A stretch of DNA of 64,000 nt from Escherichia phage dhabil, in the sequence record MN850621.1; one strand, given 5' to 3'. The notes under the pieces were generated by a model. That model made no database searches. It saw only the letters and a list, made by a program, of their open reading frames with translations, and was not told where the DNA came from. This document shows, one piece after another, positions 6,574 to 58,366 of the stretch. Both the position numbers and the translations under genes were made by a program. Numbering within the stretch: position 1 is the first letter of the stretch; each line of letters opens with the position of its first letter.

Positions 6574-8784
6574 TTAAGCCGCTTCCACGGCTTTCATGAA
6601 TTTAACGATTTGAGCTACAGAAGCCTCGGTAATGGATGTTCCACGACGATACATGTAATCCGAAACTAAATGGTAATCGGATTCAAACTGTACAGTCATT
6701 TTATCATTGTTACTTGAAGCATTATTGGTTAGCGTATTGAACGTCGTGTTACAGATTTTCTTGATAACAGAAAGTTTGTCATCAGTGATATACCCATGGA
6801 AATTCATATAACGGAATATATCATAGAAATTGCTCAGACGAGTATATGCTTCAGACACCGGCTTATCACTGAAATATTTAGTCATAAAACCAAGCTCAGG
6901 GAACTTAGCAATAATTTCAAGATAATACCTTGCACGGGTATTACTACCAATATAATCATCAATATCTACAGCATCTAGTGCTTCGGCATAAGCTTCTAAC
7001 GTGGTTTCCATCAAGCATTCACATTGGCCTAACTTTTTAATCTTTTTGGCAATCTGAGGGCGAATGATATGGAATTCGGTAGCACCAATCAAATTAGCCA
7101 TACGGCACATGGTAGTGGTGTTGATGTCAAAGATACCATAAGCTTCATCCATTCCCATGATATCAGAACGACTACCAAACAATACGTACCCTGTAATTTC
7201 TTCTGCTTCTGCAGCAGTTAAGTATAAGGTCTCTTGTTGCCAACGCCCGTCTTTAATGAACCAACGATAAGCACTTGGTGTTTTAGGACGAGGTTCGGAT
7301 GAACGAACAGTAACCGGAATCCACGGCTTAACAATTTTATTCAGTTCAGAGACTTTATAAAAATGAATTGTGTCGCCTTTAAAAAGTTCTTTAACCTTTT
7401 CAAGTTGTTGCATTTGCAACATTGAATTCGGGTCAACAAAAATAAGGTCTGTTCTGTATTTAGGAATATTGTGCTCTTTAACAATTTTCTTGGCCGAAGC
7501 GCTGTTGTCCATTGCTAAGGCCCAAAGTCCTCGAACTAATGGCACACGACCCTTTTCATCATCATAAACAATATGGATTTCTTTATTATTAATACCTAAT
7601 AGGCCACTAAGTCCTGCTACCGAAGAAGTATTACCACTCGGCTTAATTCGTTTCAAACGTGGGTCCATACAAACTTCGTAAACAACACCCAAATTAATAA
7701 GGTCGTTTTGAAGTGTATAACGTTGGTACAATTTCTCGTATGTTAATTTTTCAGTTGTGAACTCTTTAGTAACGCCTCTTTTAGAAAGATAGTCGCGAGC
7801 ACTATAACCTAGGTTAGAAAGGTCACGATAAACATGACGTGGATTATCAGATTCAACCCATTCCTGTGTATCGTTTTTAAAGACCAATGCATCCAAGGCT
7901 TCGATACGAGTTGCGATATTTTCCATTGTGCGTTTATCAAGAGACAGCACTTCACGAGATGGAGCGATATCTAACGAACCCATAGGGAACTTAATATAAA
8001 CTACATCATGGCGAGTACGCATCCATGTGCCTTTAATATAAGCCGAATCCAATGGATAAACAATACCACCATAAACGGCATAAAGCCCTGAACGTTCAAA
8101 ATCACCGTAGCCGGTATCGGTTACAGCATAGTAGTCATCAAATTCAGGGAAATAATCAACTTCGGCCCCATCAACATCACCAAGCCCAATGAACGGGCGC
8201 ATGATATATCGAACTTCAGTTTCAAACTTACGGAAATCTTCTTCGTCGACAGGAACCGTGATTTCGATACCTGTTTTGTCGCCTGGTTGCATTGGTTCAA
8301 CGAATGTAGGTTTAATCTGCGGCCCGTCACCATCCATATAAGCTACATAACCGCGAACTTCACCATTATGCCAGGATGTAATATTAAACGTTTCGGTATA
8401 ACTGAACGGGGATTTAGAACCAAGGCCAAATCCACCAATGAAATCGTTAGAAGCAGTTTTAGATGATGCGAAATAAGAGTTATACAAACCGGTTTCGTTT
8501 TCATCACCACGAATCTGGAAATCGCTCATACCTGGACCGAAATCACGACACACAAAGCGTGGGTCGAGCTTACCAGGAACCTGTACTTTCCAACGTTCTT
8601 TATTACCATTCAGAATATGAGCATCGATCATGTTGGTAATTAGTTCACGAACTACAGCACGCACCTTATTACTATAAAGGTCTGATGAAAGAATTTTAAA
8701 GACCTTAGGTGAGGCCTGGATAGTAAATCCTGTGGACTTAGCACCATTACCAATGATTTGTTCTTTTTCGGTTTCAATAATCAT
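6574..8784 (-). CDS. rIIA: rIIA protector from prophage-induced early lysis (GHKL-type ATPase fold)
   Basis: 736 aa; N-terminus MIIETEKEQIIGNGAKS...VVRELITNMIDAH matches T4 rIIA as recalled. Confidence 0.9.
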   Translation of the reverse strand: MIIETEKEQIIGNGAKSTGFTIQASPKVFKILSSDLYSNKVRAVVRELITNMIDAHILNGNKERWKVQVPGKLDPRFVCRDFGPGMSDFQIRGDENETGLYNSYFASSKTASNDFIGGFGLGSKSPFSYTETFNITSWHNGEVRGYVAYMDGDGPQIKPTFVEPMQPGDKTGIEITVPVDEEDFRKFETEVRYIMRPFIGLGDVDGAEVDYFPEFDDYYAVTDTGYGDFERSGLYAVYGGIVYPLDSAYIKGTWMRTRHDVVYIKFPMGSLDIAPSREVLSLDKRTMENIATRIEALDALVFKNDTQEWVESDNPRHVYRDLSNLGYSARDYLSKRGVTKEFTTEKLTYEKLYQRYTLQNDLINLGVVYEVCMDPRLKRIKPSGNTSSVAGLSGLLGINNKEIHIVYDDEKGRVPLVRGLWALAMDNSASAKKIVKEHNIPKYRTDLIFVDPNSMLQMQQLEKVKELFKGDTIHFYKVSELNKIVKPWIPVTVRSSEPRPKTPSAYRWFIKDGRWQQETLYLTAAEAEEITGYVLFGSRSDIMGMDEAYGIFDINTTTMCRMANLIGATEFHIIRPQIAKKIKKLGQCECLMETTLEAYAEALDAVDIDDYIGSNTRARYYLEIIAKFPELGFMTKYFSDKPVSEAYTRLSNFYDIFRYMNFHGYITDDKLSVIKKICNTTFNTLTNNASSNNDKMTVQFESDYHLVSDYMYRRGTSITEASVAQIVKFMKAVEAA

Positions 8785-53364: not shown

Positions 53365-53889
53365 TTATGCGAGAACCGTCTTTAAACGCTCTTCAAATTT
53401 CTGAAGCAGAGCTTGGCGTTCAGCTCGTTGTGATTTGTACTGCTCGATACGACCTGAAGTGAGGGCGTACTGTTCGTTTACTGATTCCCGCATAAATTCA
53501 GGAATCTCTTTACAAGCTTTGATTTCGTCAAACTTATCAATAACCGCTTGTTGTTCGGCAATTAAGTTATCAAAATAAGCGATATCTGATTTAACGTTTG
53601 CCAGGTCAGATTCAGTAGGCATTAAACGTTTATTACGCTCAGCTTGATAAGCTTGGTTGGTTTCACGACTCCAGTGAAGAGTACGTTTTTTGTTGGTGTT
53701 TTTGTAGAGCTCTACAATACCAACTGAATCGATGACAGCAATCCAGTTCCAACGGCTTTTGTAAATCTCTCCTCCAGATACGGTAATCTCATTACCACAA
53801 GCAACGTCATTAAAGAACTTGCTTTGTTTTTCGGATTTGAAATTACCATTGTTAAAATTAATCAGTGAAAAAATATCTTTAGCGTTCAT
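53365..53889 (-). CDS. hypothetical protein, 174 aa
   Basis: ATG at 53887-53889; coiled-coil-like C-terminus. Confidence 0.45.
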   Translation of the reverse strand: MNAKDIFSLINFNNGNFKSEKQSKFFNDVACGNEITVSGGEIYKSRWNWIAVIDSVGIVELYKNTNKKRTLHWSRETNQAYQAERNKRLMPTESDLANVKSDIAYFDNLIAEQQAVIDKFDEIKACKEIPEFMRESVNEQYALTSGRIEQYKSQRAERQALLQKFEERLKTVLA

Positions 53890-53895
53890 GATAAC

Positions 53896-53944
53896 CTCCA
53901 GTAGTTGATAGGTCTATAGTATCATTTCTACTGGAGATGTAAAC
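53896..53944 (-). promoter_or_regulatory. promoter cassette with RBS-pairing stem
   Basis: Exact 20-mer core; minus GTTTAC (53939-53944), N17, TACTAT; 9-bp arms ctccagtag / ctactggag. Confidence 0.6.
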
Positions 53945-53946
53945 AA

Positions 53947-54288
53947 CTAATAAAAACTTTTTTCACCGGCTTGTCCACTAAACCATGCGGATTGGGTGTT
54001 CTCTTTCCGTTGATGTTTAATACGAATAAGGTATTCATTCCTGATGGCACAGAGTTCATCTCTGAAGTCGCCTGCCAACTTAACCTGCTTACGGTCTAGA
54101 TTTATTAAGGCTTGGGTCTTCGCTGCCAAGAGCAGTCTCTTGTAGTCTCCTTCTTCACAATCGGTTTTGTAAACCTTCTCAGCGAATTGGTGTTTAAATT
54201 CATTATCATAGTCTTCAATAGACTGTTTCATGGCATTAGAGTATTTCAACTCTGCTTTTATAAGGTCATAACTAAATTGTTCGAACAT
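53947..54288 (-). CDS. hypothetical protein, 113 aa
   Basis: ATG at 54286-54288. Confidence 0.4.
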   Translation of the reverse strand: MFEQFSYDLIKAELKYSNAMKQSIEDYDNEFKHQFAEKVYKTDCEEGDYKRLLLAAKTQALINLDRKQVKLAGDFRDELCAIRNEYLIRIKHQRKENTQSAWFSGQAGEKSFY

Positions 54289-54298
54289 AATTTCACCT

Positions 54299-55279
54299 TT
54301 ATTTCAGAAGTGTAACTTCAGCGATTTCGCTCCAGTCATTTTTATCGGTGGCAATGAAGTCCGCCAGGTAAAGAGCCGTGCGTAATGATACGTTACGAAG
54401 ACGAGATACATTGGCCTTCATCCATGCTAGAGCTTGATAAGTCTCAGCATCAGTCAGACCTCGGTTTTGCATCATATCAGTGGACAGGATAACGTCTTCA
54501 ACACGAACCATAATCTCTTCATTCGAGTGAACTCCGAGGTCTAAGTAAACCGAACGAGATACTAAAGCCTGGAGGTGTGGAGCAAGTTTAGTTCCACGCT
54601 CTAATTCACGGTCAATGTCAACGTTGGTGATGAACACGATGGTGCCTTCGTATTCGAATTCTTTATCGATATTTTTATCATCGAGATAAGAACTTGAAGT
54701 GCTCCAGCACACCTTACGTTTCTCACCGGTATCCAATGCGGCTTTAAGAAGGTTCAGGATATCCATGTCAGAGAATACATCAACATCATCAATAAGAAGA
54801 ACACTATTAGGGCCGCGGTTATTCCAAAGCTGCTCGTAAAGACCGATTCCACTAATCTTTCCGTTGATTGATTTATATTCGATAGTTTCATTTTCGTGGG
54901 CATTTTGTAATGCTTTATCTAAAGAGTAGGTTTTACCAATACCTGCGGCACCAGAGATGATAAGGGAACGAATTTTACCATCGATGATTCCGTTAGTCAT
55001 CATGTTCATTACTTTAAAACGTTTGTTGATGCGATGTTTCATTTCTTCAGAGGATTCGGTAACCATTACAGGAGCTTCAGCACCTTCCATTTCAACGTCA
55101 CATTTGAACACCCACACACCACGTTCAACACCATCAATCTGTACGAATACCTTGCCATCACCGAGGTGAGCTTCAGATTCATGAATTTTATTAGGGAACC
55201 AGGTTTTACCTGAACTCATGAACGTACCAGAGATTTCATTACCGCGATAGATACCTTTGTTGATTTTGATAGTTAACAT
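54299..55279 (-). CDS. P-loop NTPase (AAA-like), about 326 aa
   Basis: Walker A ISGAAGIGKTYS, Walker B VLLIDDVD; start moved from 55366 (inside the promoter) to ATG 55277-55279 with SD GGAGAA. Confidence 0.55.
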   Translation of the reverse strand: MLTIKINKGIYRGNEISGTFMSSGKTWFPNKIHESEAHLGDGKVFVQIDGVERGVWVFKCDVEMEGAEAPVMVTESSEEMKHRINKRFKVMNMMTNGIIDGKIRSLIISGAAGIGKTYSLDKALQNAHENETIEYKSINGKISGIGLYEQLWNNRGPNSVLLIDDVDVFSDMDILNLLKAALDTGEKRKVCWSTSSSYLDDKNIDKEFEYEGTIVFITNVDIDRELERGTKLAPHLQALVSRSVYLDLGVHSNEEIMVRVEDVILSTDMMQNRGLTDAETYQALAWMKANVSRLRNVSLRTALYLADFIATDKNDWSEIAEVTLLK

Positions 55280-55306
55280 TATATTCTCCGTTTCACTCAG
55301 TAGATT

Positions 55307-55345
55307 TGATAGGTCCATAATAACATGCTCTACGAGAGGGTAAAC
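55307..55345 (-). promoter_or_regulatory. T4-early-type promoter cassette
   Basis: Core TTGATAGGTCCATAATAACA; minus GTTTAC (55340-55345), N17, TATTAT. Confidence 0.55.
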
Positions 55346-55362
55346 TCTTTTTTGCACTAAAC

Positions 55363-55386
55363 CCAAAAAAGGACCCCGAAGGGTCC
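55363..55386 (-). terminator. intrinsic terminator, UUCG loop
   Basis: Stem GGACCC/GGGTCC 55371-55386, loop cgaa, minus-strand TTTTTTGGG; with the adjacent promoter it repeats the 573-652 cassette. Confidence 0.65.
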
Positions 55387-55581
55387 TAAATTGCGCTCCA
55401 ATAATTATGGAAGCGGATATTATTGATAGCCCAGTTAATACACCGTCTTATCTGCTTAGACGTAGGCTTGCATACGTACTTGAAATTGATTCGTCTACCG
55501 GTTTCTCTACAAACTACTTCAAGATACCAACGACAGGTTTTATGAGGTCTTCCATATGACAGGAAAACCTTGATTTCTTCT

Positions 55582-56592
55582 TTAGCGGTAATAAGAGTTG
55601 TGGTTGTCAAGATACACCTCTTCGACGAACTTGTCCCAGAACTTCATGTCCACCTTCTCAGGTATACCGTTCTTATGAGCTTGTACAGCCAGGACTTCAA
55701 CTTCATCAACAATGTTTTCTAGCAGCCCTTGGACCACTTTAAAAGGCATATCACCTGCTTTTATTGCTTTAATAATAGAAGCATTTTTAAGTGGATAAAC
55801 CAAATCGCCTGTTTGATAGATTTCCTTCAACTGATATCCAGCACGATAAGCGTGGCTCAGAGCTTTCCAGTCAATACCTTCATTGGCTTCGGCCTTACGA
55901 GCACGTTCACCATATTCGGCATCAAGTTTATTCAGAGATTGCTTGAGCTCGATTAATGACAAAGTAGTTTGGTATTTACGACCGAGGACGGTATAGAACG
56001 TTTGAGGACCTGTTTTCTCGTGGTTATGAAATACCCATTCACAGAACTCATTTTCAGGGAGCCGGTGCTTAATATCTTCTACCTTAGTACGTCGTTGCTT
56101 AGTAGAACCATCTTCTTGATAATCAACCCACTGTTCAGGAATCTGGTTAACAATTGCCAGTACACCACGTAAAGCAGCCAGTCGAGAACCCTTAACACCA
56201 TATTTAGAAGCTTGCTTACGGACGTACCCTAAATAGGCTTTCATGTTGGTTGTATAGAAACGCGAACGGTTATCTTGGATAAATTTCCATACATCAGGTA
56301 AATCAGATTTAACCACCATTTCAGGCGGAGTGTGGAGCATATCCAGAGCAACGGTTTCGCCTTCAGCAGCCAGTTTAAAGAAATATTTCAGACTGTAAAG
56401 CTCATGGTCAACATCATCTTTAGTGTTTTTGGAAGCAGTGTTATTCGTGTTCAGGTTGGTATGGTTCATTGCCGTACCTAACAGAATATCACGCGGATGT
56501 GGAACAAAGATTTCTTTAAAATCGACATCAGATTCCGGAGTACTTGTTCCATAAAGGTGGCTACCGAAGTAGCCTTTCATAACTGTTCTCAT
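55582..56592 (-). CDS. Pol-beta superfamily nucleotidyltransferase
   Basis: 336 aa; N-terminal GSHLYGTSTPESDVDF fits the [GS]-x(9-13)-D-x-[DE] nucleotidyltransferase motif; ATGA overlap with the upstream membrane-protein gene. Confidence 0.6.
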   Translation of the reverse strand: MRTVMKGYFGSHLYGTSTPESDVDFKEIFVPHPRDILLGTAMNHTNLNTNNTASKNTKDDVDHELYSLKYFFKLAAEGETVALDMLHTPPEMVVKSDLPDVWKFIQDNRSRFYTTNMKAYLGYVRKQASKYGVKGSRLAALRGVLAIVNQIPEQWVDYQEDGSTKQRRTKVEDIKHRLPENEFCEWVFHNHEKTGPQTFYTVLGRKYQTTLSLIELKQSLNKLDAEYGERARKAEANEGIDWKALSHAYRAGYQLKEIYQTGDLVYPLKNASIIKAIKAGDMPFKVVQGLLENIVDEVEVLAVQAHKNGIPEKVDMKFWDKFVEEVYLDNHNSYYR

Positions 56593-57041
56593 TTCTTAGC
56601 CTCAAAATGGATTACCGGACACATCTTAGATTTACGAGCTTTAATATATTGAATGAAAACATTTTCTTTAATTTCCTTTCCTTCACGTTTAGCTTTAATG
56701 CGTTCCCATTCTTTTTCTTCTTTACGTAAATCGTACCGGGCCCATAAATTCATTAGACCATACACCAAACCAAAAGCTACCGCTAGAATAAGGGCTATTA
56801 TAATCAGTCCTAAAATAAAACCTAAACTTAAACCAACAGGAGTACTCAATACAAAGAACTGCTCCAATATACCGGCACCTGCAACAGTTAAGCCGAAAAT
56901 AGTACTACCTGCAAGCACAGAACACATAAAGCACACCCAAACCATTTTCCAGAAGTATGCGCATAATGATCGCGGACGCGAATAACTGGCATAAAAGCGG
57001 TCATGTAATTTAACATGCCAAGAGTTTTCATTGATAATCAT
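56589..57041 (-). CDS. integral membrane protein, 150 aa
   Basis: Three hydrophobic segments then a Lys/Glu-rich tail; translationally coupled to the nucleotidyltransferase. Confidence 0.5.
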   Translation of the reverse strand: MIINENSWHVKLHDRFYASYSRPRSLCAYFWKMVWVCFMCSVLAGSTIFGLTVAGAGILEQFFVLSTPVGLSLGFILGLIIIALILAVAFGLVYGLMNLWARYDLRKEEKEWERIKAKREGKEIKENVFIQYIKARKSKMCPVIHFEAKK

Positions 57042-57050
57042 AATATTTCC

Positions 57051-57611
57051 TTAAGAGTTCATAGTTGGGATAACAGAGTTCAGATAAGATACTAAAACTT
57101 TTAGCTCGTCCTTCGTAAATACAACTTCATTTTCACCGTCGTGTCTTTGGACCAAGGATAGCAAATCACGGCCCTGGTGTTGATACACGGTTAGTTCGGT
57201 ATCATAATCCATTTCTTCTTCATCACCTTCAAATGTTTCACTAGAACGAATTACGGCATCTTGACCAGGGACTTTCCATTCAACTTCCGGCTTGCATTCT
57301 TCCTGGAACAGTTTAAAAATACATTTAAAGAAATTACTAGAATCGCTAATGCTCAGACATTCTCCGTCTGTTTCCAAATTAAACCCTTTGTCATGGTTAT
57401 AAATCTGGGCCCATAAACCATCATTAATATCAAATACACCTCTAAATCTGCCATTAAGATATTCGTGTTTGTCCAAAACCTTTAAATCATAAAGCGGCTT
57501 GATATCTTGGATAGTCAGTACGATTTTATCGTCTTCTTGTGAAAGCACAATTGCATTATCAACTACTTCAGCAGTCAGGTCACCAAACAGCCCAGATGTT
57601 TCAATAATCAT
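57051..57611 (-). CDS. hypothetical acidic protein, 186 aa
   Basis: ATG at 57609-57611. Confidence 0.45.
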   Translation of the reverse strand: MIIETSGLFGDLTAEVVDNAIVLSQEDDKIVLTIQDIKPLYDLKVLDKHEYLNGRFRGVFDINDGLWAQIYNHDKGFNLETDGECLSISDSSNFFKCIFKLFQEECKPEVEWKVPGQDAVIRSSETFEGDEEEMDYDTELTVYQHQGRDLLSLVQRHDGENEVVFTKDELKVLVSYLNSVIPTMNS

Positions 57612-57621
57612 TTTCCGTTCC

Positions 57622-57804
57622 TCATTTCACATTTTGTTTAATAAAATTTAGCAATTCTTTAAGGGCTTTATCTTCTTCTTTAGAAAGCCTAGTACAATCA
57701 TCAACCGAGTAATGGTGACAAAATGCTGTTTCGAATCTGGCAACTGTACCAGCATAGGCCTCGATAAGCTCTTCAAGCTTTAAGTGCTTTTCTTTGGTTT
57801 TCAT
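57622..57804 (-). CDS. hypothetical protein, 60 aa
   Basis: ATG at 57802-57804. Confidence 0.4.
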   Translation of the reverse strand: MKTKEKHLKLEELIEAYAGTVARFETAFCHHYSVDDCTRLSKEEDKALKELLNFIKQNVK

Positions 57805-57807
57805 AAA

Positions 57808-58017
57808 TCACCGGTTATGTTTTAAAATACTATAAAGCTCTTCGACTTGGCTTGCATCCAGATAAATGACCTCGTCATCTTGTTCCAGGACAATTCCGCC
57901 TTTAATAAGATTCCACTCTACCACTTCAACAGTCATATCATCACCTGAACCTGCTAATGTTTCAGGTTTCAAAACAATAACACCATCTTCAGAATTACCA
58001 CTCGGGTCGTATAACAT
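57808..58017 (-). CDS. hypothetical acidic protein, about 69 aa
   Basis: ORF-track start is TTG at 58092; ATG at 58015-58017 with SD GAGGAA used. Confidence 0.35.
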   Translation of the reverse strand: MLYDPSGNSEDGVIVLKPETLAGSGDDMTVEVVEWNLIKGGIVLEQDDEVIYLDASQVEELYSILKHNR

Positions 58018-58108
58018 TACAGTTTCCTCGCTAACCGTGAAAAGAATAAACCTATTAAAACTGGACCAATAAGCATTGTAAGCCAAGCCCAAGGTTCAAG
58101 ATAGTAAA

Positions 58109-58366
58109 TCATCTCATGCTCCTATGCCAACAGTTACGTGGCTCACGTTTAAAAATTTCATCATGCATTGACTGACAACCTACACAGTATATCACACCCT
58201 TAATAGCTTGACGTCGTGCTTCAGGAATCTCTTCATCACAATCAAAACAATATTTAGCCGATTCACGTTCAACTGCTACTTGCTTACGGGCGTGTACTAT
58301 AGCGGCCTGTACGACCGCTTCCATTTCGAGCTGTTCGGCCCCGTCCTTAGCAAATCCAACGGCCAC
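58109..58366 (-). CDS. TraR/DksA-family C4 zinc-finger protein
   Basis: CFDCDEEIPEARRQAIKGVIYCVGCQ (CxxC-N17-CxxC); start is GTG at 58366 or ATG at 58324. Confidence 0.5.
   Translation of the reverse strand: MAVGFAKDGAEQLEMEAVVQAAIVHARKQVAVERESAKYCFDCDEEIPEARRQAIKGVIYCVGCQSMHDEIFKREPRNCWHRSMR

Follow-up and report, generated by a model that had tools for sequence, protein, structure and literature searches.

The region studied here (positions 54,299 to 57,041) lies in a 64,000-nucleotide stretch of DNA, hereafter the window, from the genome of Escherichia phage dhabil (MN850621.1), a T4-like Dhakavirus of the Straboviridae. It encodes a 150-amino-acid (aa) membrane protein, a 336-aa nucleotidyltransferase (NTase), a 74-aa protein and a 326-aa ATPase. 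We consider it probable (roughly 70%) that these are four separate, ordinary T4-type accessory genes and not one system, and that one of them encodes an NrdC.11/RlaP protein that likely adds nucleotides to RNA 3'-OH ends. The first-pass annotation of this DNA had proposed that the membrane protein and the NTase might form a signalling, abortive-infection or toxin-antitoxin module, and had listed RNA repair of the RlaP type among the other roles open to the NTase.

By its sequence the NTase is identified as orthologous to T4 NrdC.11 and as a phage-type, divergent RlaP protein. It is 82% identical to T4 NrdC.11 (NP_049709) over all 336 residues, gap-free, and the NTase of Escherichia phage dhaeg is 100% identical to it. 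The ATPase in turn is 77% identical to T4 NrdC.10. Both proteins show the kind of homology to T4 nrdC.x products that the first-pass annotation had itself named as an argument against a module. The Pfam RlaP model (PF10127) matches the NTase with 44.7 bits (E=1.8e-11, gathering cutoff 23). When 81 diverse homologs spanning 34-82% identity were scanned against Pfam, RlaP was matched by 79 of them (best E=2.2e-19) and no other family was recurrent; the CCA-adding and poly(A) polymerase families were not among the Pfam matches. A match to phrog_388, labelled "nucleotidyltransferase", is also strong (E=8e-131). RlaP stands for "RNA ligase-associating Pol-beta", a name given by Burroughs and Aravind according to the passages of PMC7824862 and PMC12776372 that cite them.

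The Pol-beta NTase catalytic signature (hG[GS]-x9-13-DxD plus a third carboxylate) is present in the NTase as G10-S11, 10 residues, D22-V-D24 and the third carboxylate D84. G10, S11, D22, D24 and D84 are each at least 90% conserved in the 81 homologs, which bears out the GS-x10-DVD active site first noticed in the bare sequence. The AlphaFold2 (AF2) model of the protein (mean predicted local distance difference test score, pLDDT, 93.6) comprises an N-terminal NTase domain, a C-terminal helical domain that bears the conserved motif YGERA...DWKAxSHAxR, and an extra beta subdomain. No PDB sequence was matched, whether the query was the NTase itself or a profile of 81 sequences.

T4 nrdC.11 was called a COG3541 nucleotidyltransferase already in 2006 (PMC1524935), when the nrdC.10 product was classed as an AAA ATPase, and a December 2025 preprint assigns T4 NrdC.11 to cluster 5 in a similarity network of PF10127 proteins (PMC12776372). 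A T4 deletion that spans nrdC.11 to mobD.3 is viable, and nrdC.11 is therefore dispensable in the laboratory (PMC9825161). No functional study of nrdC.10 or nrdC.11 was found in the literature. T4 NrdC.11 corresponds to the Y05K-type UniProt entry described as an "uncharacterized protein in the nrdC-mobD region".

The activity of the NTase would most likely be the template-independent addition of one or two nucleoside monophosphates (NMPs) to an RNA 3'-OH. This is what the RlaP proteins of Pseudomonas fluorescens (PfRlaP) and P. aeruginosa (PaRlaP) do: they add 1-2 NMPs onto the 3'-OH of RNA, DNA and protein not being substrates, they prefer Mn2+ and, among RNA ends, the 3' end of a nicked anticodon loop (as in a nicked-tRNA mimic), and they partly restore aminoacylation of repaired tRNA from which one nucleotide was missing (PMC12776372). 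The window NTase is like them in its Pfam family and its Pol-beta catalytic triad. In the crystal structure of PfRlaP an N-terminal NTase domain and a C-terminal helical domain form a cleft (PMC12776372), and the AF2 model of the window NTase predicts this order of domains. Among jumbo phages, the distribution of RlaP mirrors that of RNA ligases (PMC7824862). T4 PseT and Rnl1 mend tRNA-Lys cut by PrrC, and RloC-type nucleases also excise the wobble nucleotide (PMC12776372, PMC7824862). RnlA, a 5'-P/3'-OH ligase, is compatible with the product of RlaP (PMC12776372). Phage dhaeg encodes an RnlA-like RNA ligase as well as a PseT that is 89% identical to the T4 protein.

Genomic context was also assessed in cellular genomes, at 80 loci from Desulfobacterales, Nitrospirota, Alphaproteobacteria and others that encode relatives of the NrdC.11 clade (33-51% identity); neighbours within 3.5 kb were clustered and the recurrent clusters annotated. 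The most recurrent neighbours are the Pnkp kinase-phosphatase-ligase (6), RtcB (5), Hen1 (3) and Ro60/TROVE (3). Together with the RlaP match and the T4 NrdC.11 orthology, these repair neighbours favour the RNA-repair option that the first-pass annotation had listed. Homologs of the membrane protein, NrdC.10, DUF7279 (the family of the 74-aa protein) and MobD.1 were absent from the neighbours at all 80 loci. A separate observation concerns the cellular relatives themselves: 20 of the 80 loci have a second NTase paralog in the same neighbourhood (e.g. L093, L096, L097, L100, L102, L106, L113, L114 and L122), mostly just downstream on the same strand, suggesting that in bacteria these NTases act as heteromers or in two steps.

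A possible order of events in the infected cell is that PseT (Pnkp) would strip the 3'-phosphate or 2',3'-cyclic phosphate from the ends that a host anticodon nuclease produces, that NrdC.11 would re-add onto the 5' tRNA half the nucleotide trimmed by a "smart" RloC-type ribotoxin, and that RnlA (5'-P/3'-OH ligase) would then reseal the tRNA. The outcome would be the rescue of a fraction of the tRNAs damaged by trimming anticodon nucleases. We infer that NrdC.11 would have the RlaP activity, act on this substrate in vivo and serve against trimming anticodon nucleases.

The locus is laid out as follows, with all features on the minus strand.

57051-57611, minus strand: MobD.1/y05I homolog (Pfam T4_y05I_N and T4_y05I_C)
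56589-57041, minus strand: membrane protein, 150 aa (open reading frame, ORF; phrog_944, E=4.4e-54)
55582-56592, minus strand: nucleotidyltransferase, 336 aa, T4 NrdC.11 ortholog (RlaP, PF10127)
55386-55610, minus strand: DUF7279/phrog_8921 gene, 74 aa, TTG start (Pfam and PHROG profiles)
55387-55370, minus strand: predicted intrinsic terminator (sequence and terminator scan)
55344-55317, minus strand: predicted T4-early-type promoter (promoter sequence)
54299-55279, minus strand: ATPase, 326 aa, T4 NrdC.10 ortholog (ORF; PHROG 1250; Walker motifs)
Downstream of the 326-aa ATPase, minus strand: nrdC.9, nrdC.8 and nrdC.6 homologs (synteny with T4 and phage IME341)

Every gene in 52-59.5 kb is carried by the minus strand. 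Synteny with T4 and phage IME341 places the locus in the nrdC-rI region, where it had been put from the first. The 2.7-kb region has 98% DNA identity to dhaeg and 90-96% to other Dhakavirus records. The gene order kept in the synteny comparison is mobD.1, then either the membrane protein or mobD, then nrdC.11, nrdC.10, nrdC.9 and nrdC.8. T4 NrdC.11 is an ortholog at the same place, between mobD.1 and nrdC.10; however, the upstream gene that overlaps the NTase start in T4 is the HNH endonuclease mobD, where the window has the 150-aa membrane protein, and T4 is without a downstream DUF7279 gene.

The TGA of the membrane ORF overlaps the ATG of the NTase within ...AAGAAATGAGAACAG..., and a GAGG Shine-Dalgarno sequence lies 7 nucleotides (nt) upstream of that ATG. 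This ATGA overlap is located exactly where the first-pass annotation had placed it. It is little informative about a relationship of the two genes, since 21 of the 120 minus-strand ORF junctions in the window (counted on a crude ORF map) are alike; the 4 nt that the two genes share stem from the tight gene packing that is normal for this genome.

Conservation of the pair was assessed in 78 IMG/VR loci that contain the NTase. A jackhmmer search of the 6 kb upstream of the NTase detected a homolog of the membrane protein at 46 of the 78 loci; Dhakavirus and some Tequatrovirus (e.g. RB68) are the only genomes in which its gene directly adjoins the start of the NTase or overlaps it. In several other T4-like lineages (NTase identity 64-73%), a 136-185-aa non-membrane ORF intervenes and itself overlaps the NTase start. 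The ORFs adjoining the NTase in other lineages are mostly without a Pfam family, and that of locus L053 is an HNH endonuclease. No remnant of the membrane gene was detected in the T4 nrdD-tk region (44-60 kb; tblastn, E<=1). In Aeromonas phage CC2 the membrane gene is near 224 kb, the 4 kb around it contain no NTase, and the apparent NTase locus (L079) is at 62-75 kb. Phage records with the NTase number 1548 and those with the membrane protein, by tblastn, 837; about half of the NTase-bearing records are without a membrane-protein homolog. The membrane protein is ~31% identical between Dhakavirus and Tequatrovirus, as against 82% for the NTase. Given the varying neighbours, the T4 and CC2 layouts and the faster divergence of the membrane protein, we attribute the pair to inherited synteny and tight gene packing and not to a two-component module. 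PADLOC and NCBIfam searches assigned the NTase, the membrane protein and the DUF7279 protein to no defence system and to no toxin-antitoxin family.

A small membrane protein near nrdC.11 recurs elsewhere, on the opposite side and from a different family: many non-Dhakavirus loci (among viral loci L016-L035) have a 77-93-aa ORF with 2-4 predicted membrane helices directly downstream of the NTase or of DUF7279 (~7008-7446).

Several observations weigh against the reading of four separate genes with an RNA-repair NTase among them. The biochemistry of RlaP was measured on two Pseudomonas enzymes and on no phage member, and the assayed proteins belong to cluster 1a of the network, NrdC.11 to cluster 5 (PMC12776372). 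The RlaP alignment is limited to the N-terminal 127 residues of the NTase (model positions 25-142 of 249), that is, to its N-terminal half; unlike the Pseudomonas enzymes, the window NTase has a divergent C-terminal half with the extra beta subdomain at about residues 154-208. The Pseudomonas RlaP genes lie between rtcB and rtcA, whereas the window NTase gene adjoins no ligase: its neighbourhood (MobD.1, membrane protein, DUF7279 and NrdC.10) contains no RNA ligase or end-healing gene, and in dhaeg pseT and the rnlA-like gene are ~88 kb from the NTase gene. The RNA-repair neighbours of the cellular relatives (Pnkp, RtcB, Hen1 and Ro60) together account for only 13 of the 80 loci. Finally, in several genera the gene of the membrane protein remains no more than ~1 kb upstream of that of the NTase, which fits inherited synteny but is also compatible with a loose functional link.

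The NTase might act on RNA 3' ends in another way, by tailing host or phage transcripts and so affecting their stability, or by mending toxin-damaged 3'-CCA ends of tRNA. The characterised RlaPs label RNAs of the size of rRNA, tRNA and cleaved tRNA with little specificity for the nucleoside triphosphate (PMC12776372); NrdC.11 is in a divergent cluster, its extra beta subdomain could alter the choice of substrate, and in phage its gene adjoins neither rnlA nor pseT. However, the cellular relatives of the clade adjoin the end-healing and sealing enzymes Pnkp, RtcB, Hen1 and Ro60, and the CCA-adding and poly(A) polymerase families gave no Pfam match, and we regard such roles as rather unlikely. 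There is far less to recommend an NTase that modifies a protein or small molecule, for instance as an AMPylating antitoxin of the MNT/MntA kind or an enzyme resembling aminoglycoside NTases, and that neutralises a host HEPN-type toxin or a metabolite. The NCBIfam MntA match (E=0.056; 13.3 bits, where the cutoff is 60) extends over the G-S loop only, MNT- and aminoglycoside-NTase-type folds are related in a general way to every minimal NTase that has a helical domain, the assayed RlaPs left proteins unlabelled (PMC12776372), and the family match is to RlaP; this possibility is very improbable.

Equally little probability attaches to a module like Hailong or CBASS (cyclic-oligonucleotide-based anti-phage signalling system), in which a ligand made by the NTase gates or activates a membrane effector for phage-versus-phage exclusion or counter-defence. 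Hailong consists of HalA, a membrane channel, and HalB, an NTase that synthesises oligo-dA, in a conserved two-gene operon; at the present locus the upstream neighbour of the NTase varies. The structural comparison suggested by the first-pass annotation returned HalB only as a weak and partial Foldseek match (138 of 336 residues, 12% identity, E of at least 0.015), which probably goes back to the generic minimal-NTase fold, as KNTase and 3c18 match at the same level. No CD-NTase (cGAS/DncV-like) fold or model match was obtained for the NTase. Of the families suggested for that comparison, RlaP is the one assigned, by Pfam, and it is not a signalling NTase family. HalA is a tetrameric channel with a cytoplasmic crown that binds oligo-dA, whereas the 150-aa membrane protein has no HalA-like cytoplasmic domain, only a charged tail of ~50 aa, and no PDB sequence match. 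The lack of any PADLOC match for either protein, the lineage-specific adjacency (no membrane gene in T4 nrdD-tk, the two genes far apart in CC2), the absence of membrane-protein homologs from all 80 cellular loci and the routine occurrence of ATGA overlaps in the window also count against it, as does the lack of an MntA signal against a toxin-antitoxin pair, and the module put forward by the first-pass annotation is not sustained. It is likewise most doubtful that the membrane protein and NTase, translationally coupled in Dhakavirus and Tequatrovirus genomes, act together in some related way, for example with the conserved cytoplasmic Cys motifs of the former sensing or tethering the NTase product or a modified RNA end as a Hailong-like guard or exclusion device, or that NrdC.10 is an RNA-repair accessory factor. 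We therefore keep to separate accessory genes, of which the NTase would probably act in RNA repair, and describe the remaining three below.

The membrane protein is probably an accessory protein of the inner membrane that evolves fast and whose gene, in Dhakavirus and some Tequatrovirus, adjoins that of the NTase incidentally. Its family is phage-only, and its gene sits at the position of the homing endonuclease gene mobD of T4. A simple homolog search gave close relatives only, and other genera were reached by tblastn and a local jackhmmer search. In an alignment of 48 sequences the only conserved elements are the Cys-containing SWHxKL...LCxYFW at the N-terminus and KARKxKxCPxIxF at the C-terminus, which flank a variable hydrophobic core. 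This core covers about residues 27-103, and both of its flanks are K/R-rich, which favours an even number of helices (2 or 4); the 150-aa ORF of the first-pass annotation is retained, and its three helices become uncertain. No Pfam, NCBIfam or PADLOC family scored above threshold for the membrane protein, and a comparison with PDB sequences gave nothing at E<0.69. Two members of the family (L036 and L040) have an N-terminal extension of ~90 aa. The label "polynucleotide kinase" given to the membrane protein in record OM386655 was considered and rejected as an annotation artefact; other labels in that record are also implausible, and the homologs of nrdC.8 and nrdC.9 are called "spanin" and "Rz1" in it.

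NrdC.10 is, as judged from its motifs and domain architecture, a generic AAA+ ATPase with its own predicted promoter and in a separate transcription unit. The gene starts at the ATG at 55279, with GGAG upstream, and the PHROG 1250 alignment begins at exactly that residue. Walker A (GAAGIGKT, 110-117) and Walker B (LLIDD, 160-165) are invariant in 53 homologs, which upholds the earlier reading of a 326-aa ATPase with these motifs; its separate transcription unit, too, had been called correctly. An N-terminal five-stranded beta domain (~1-65), which had been left unassigned, is followed by an AAA+ alpha/beta base and a helical lid, and NrdC.10 thus has the full set of AAA+ features (Walker A and B, alpha/beta base and helical lid). 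PADLOC and NCBIfam returned marginal P-loop matches only. We place the protein beside other generic AAA+ ATPases such as MCM, the MoxR-type NorQ/CbbQ, sigma-54 activators, Hda/DnaA/Cdc6 and RFC; presumably it acts on a protein or nucleic acid by remodelling or loading it. The sole link of NrdC.10 to the NTase is synteny within the Tevenvirinae and the Acinetobacter T4-like phages.

The 74-aa gene had been missed by the first-pass annotation. Its product has a phrog_8921 match (E=4.5e-35) and a Pfam match to DUF7279 that passes the cutoff (E=2.4e-12). The gene shares 29 nt with the 3' end of the NTase gene and closes its transcription unit, just before the terminator. DUF7279 homologs lie at the same position in ~17 of the 78 viral loci. 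The protein encoded in the window has four cysteines. The terminator and early promoter that had been proposed to precede the ATPase are both present in the sequence, with the correction that the terminator follows the DUF7279 gene and not the NTase. It consists of AGGACCCTTCGGGGTCCT followed by TTTTTT, with a 7-bp G+C-rich stem and a TTCG loop, and it is the sole terminator-like site in 53800-58200. The predicted promoter is of the sigma-70 type, with (G)TTTACC, a 16-nt spacer and an extended -10 element TG-n-TATTAT (TG-T-TATTAT), and resembles the T4 early-promoter consensus.

The interval mobD.1 - nrdC.11 - nrdC.10 is a recurrent insertion site. Its occupants include the HNH gene mobD in T4 (L002, 12430-13209), segE after nrdC.10 in RB68 (L003, 6552-7271), an HNH_3+AP2 ORF that adjoins the NTase (L053, 5484-6017) and a 267-aa ORF without a known family between the membrane gene and the NTase (L008, 5198-6001). 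RB68_102 (L003, 3477-3998), between mobD.1 and the membrane-protein gene, is a tandem MobD.1/y05I paralog (Pfam T4_y05I_N and T4_y05I_C). More distant T4-like phages (L054-L058, L062, L063 and L072) encode, 0.5-2 kb upstream of the NTase, either a NUDIX or a fused NMNAT-like/NUDIX protein (352-366 aa), and at several of these loci a C-5 cytosine DNA methylase gene is found downstream. The fused NMNAT-NUDIX neighbour is shared by the two "bacterial" loci of highest identity (L084 and L085), which may be phage or prophage DNA.

Since these are known T4 accessory genes, the finding is an ordinary one. The NTase and AAA ATPase classes have been known since 2006, and the NTase was assigned to RlaP between 2016 and 2025. 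The analysis also carries a warning for annotation: NrdC.10 and NrdC.11 are wrongly called "thioredoxin" in many GenBank records, an error apparently derived from the gene names nrdC.10 and nrdC.11. T4 is the phage in which RNA repair was discovered. If NrdC.11 does restore nucleotides trimmed by RloC-type anticodon nucleases, the classic PseT-Rnl1 pathway would gain a third step, and such a repair role would explain why the gene is retained in ~1500 sequenced phages.

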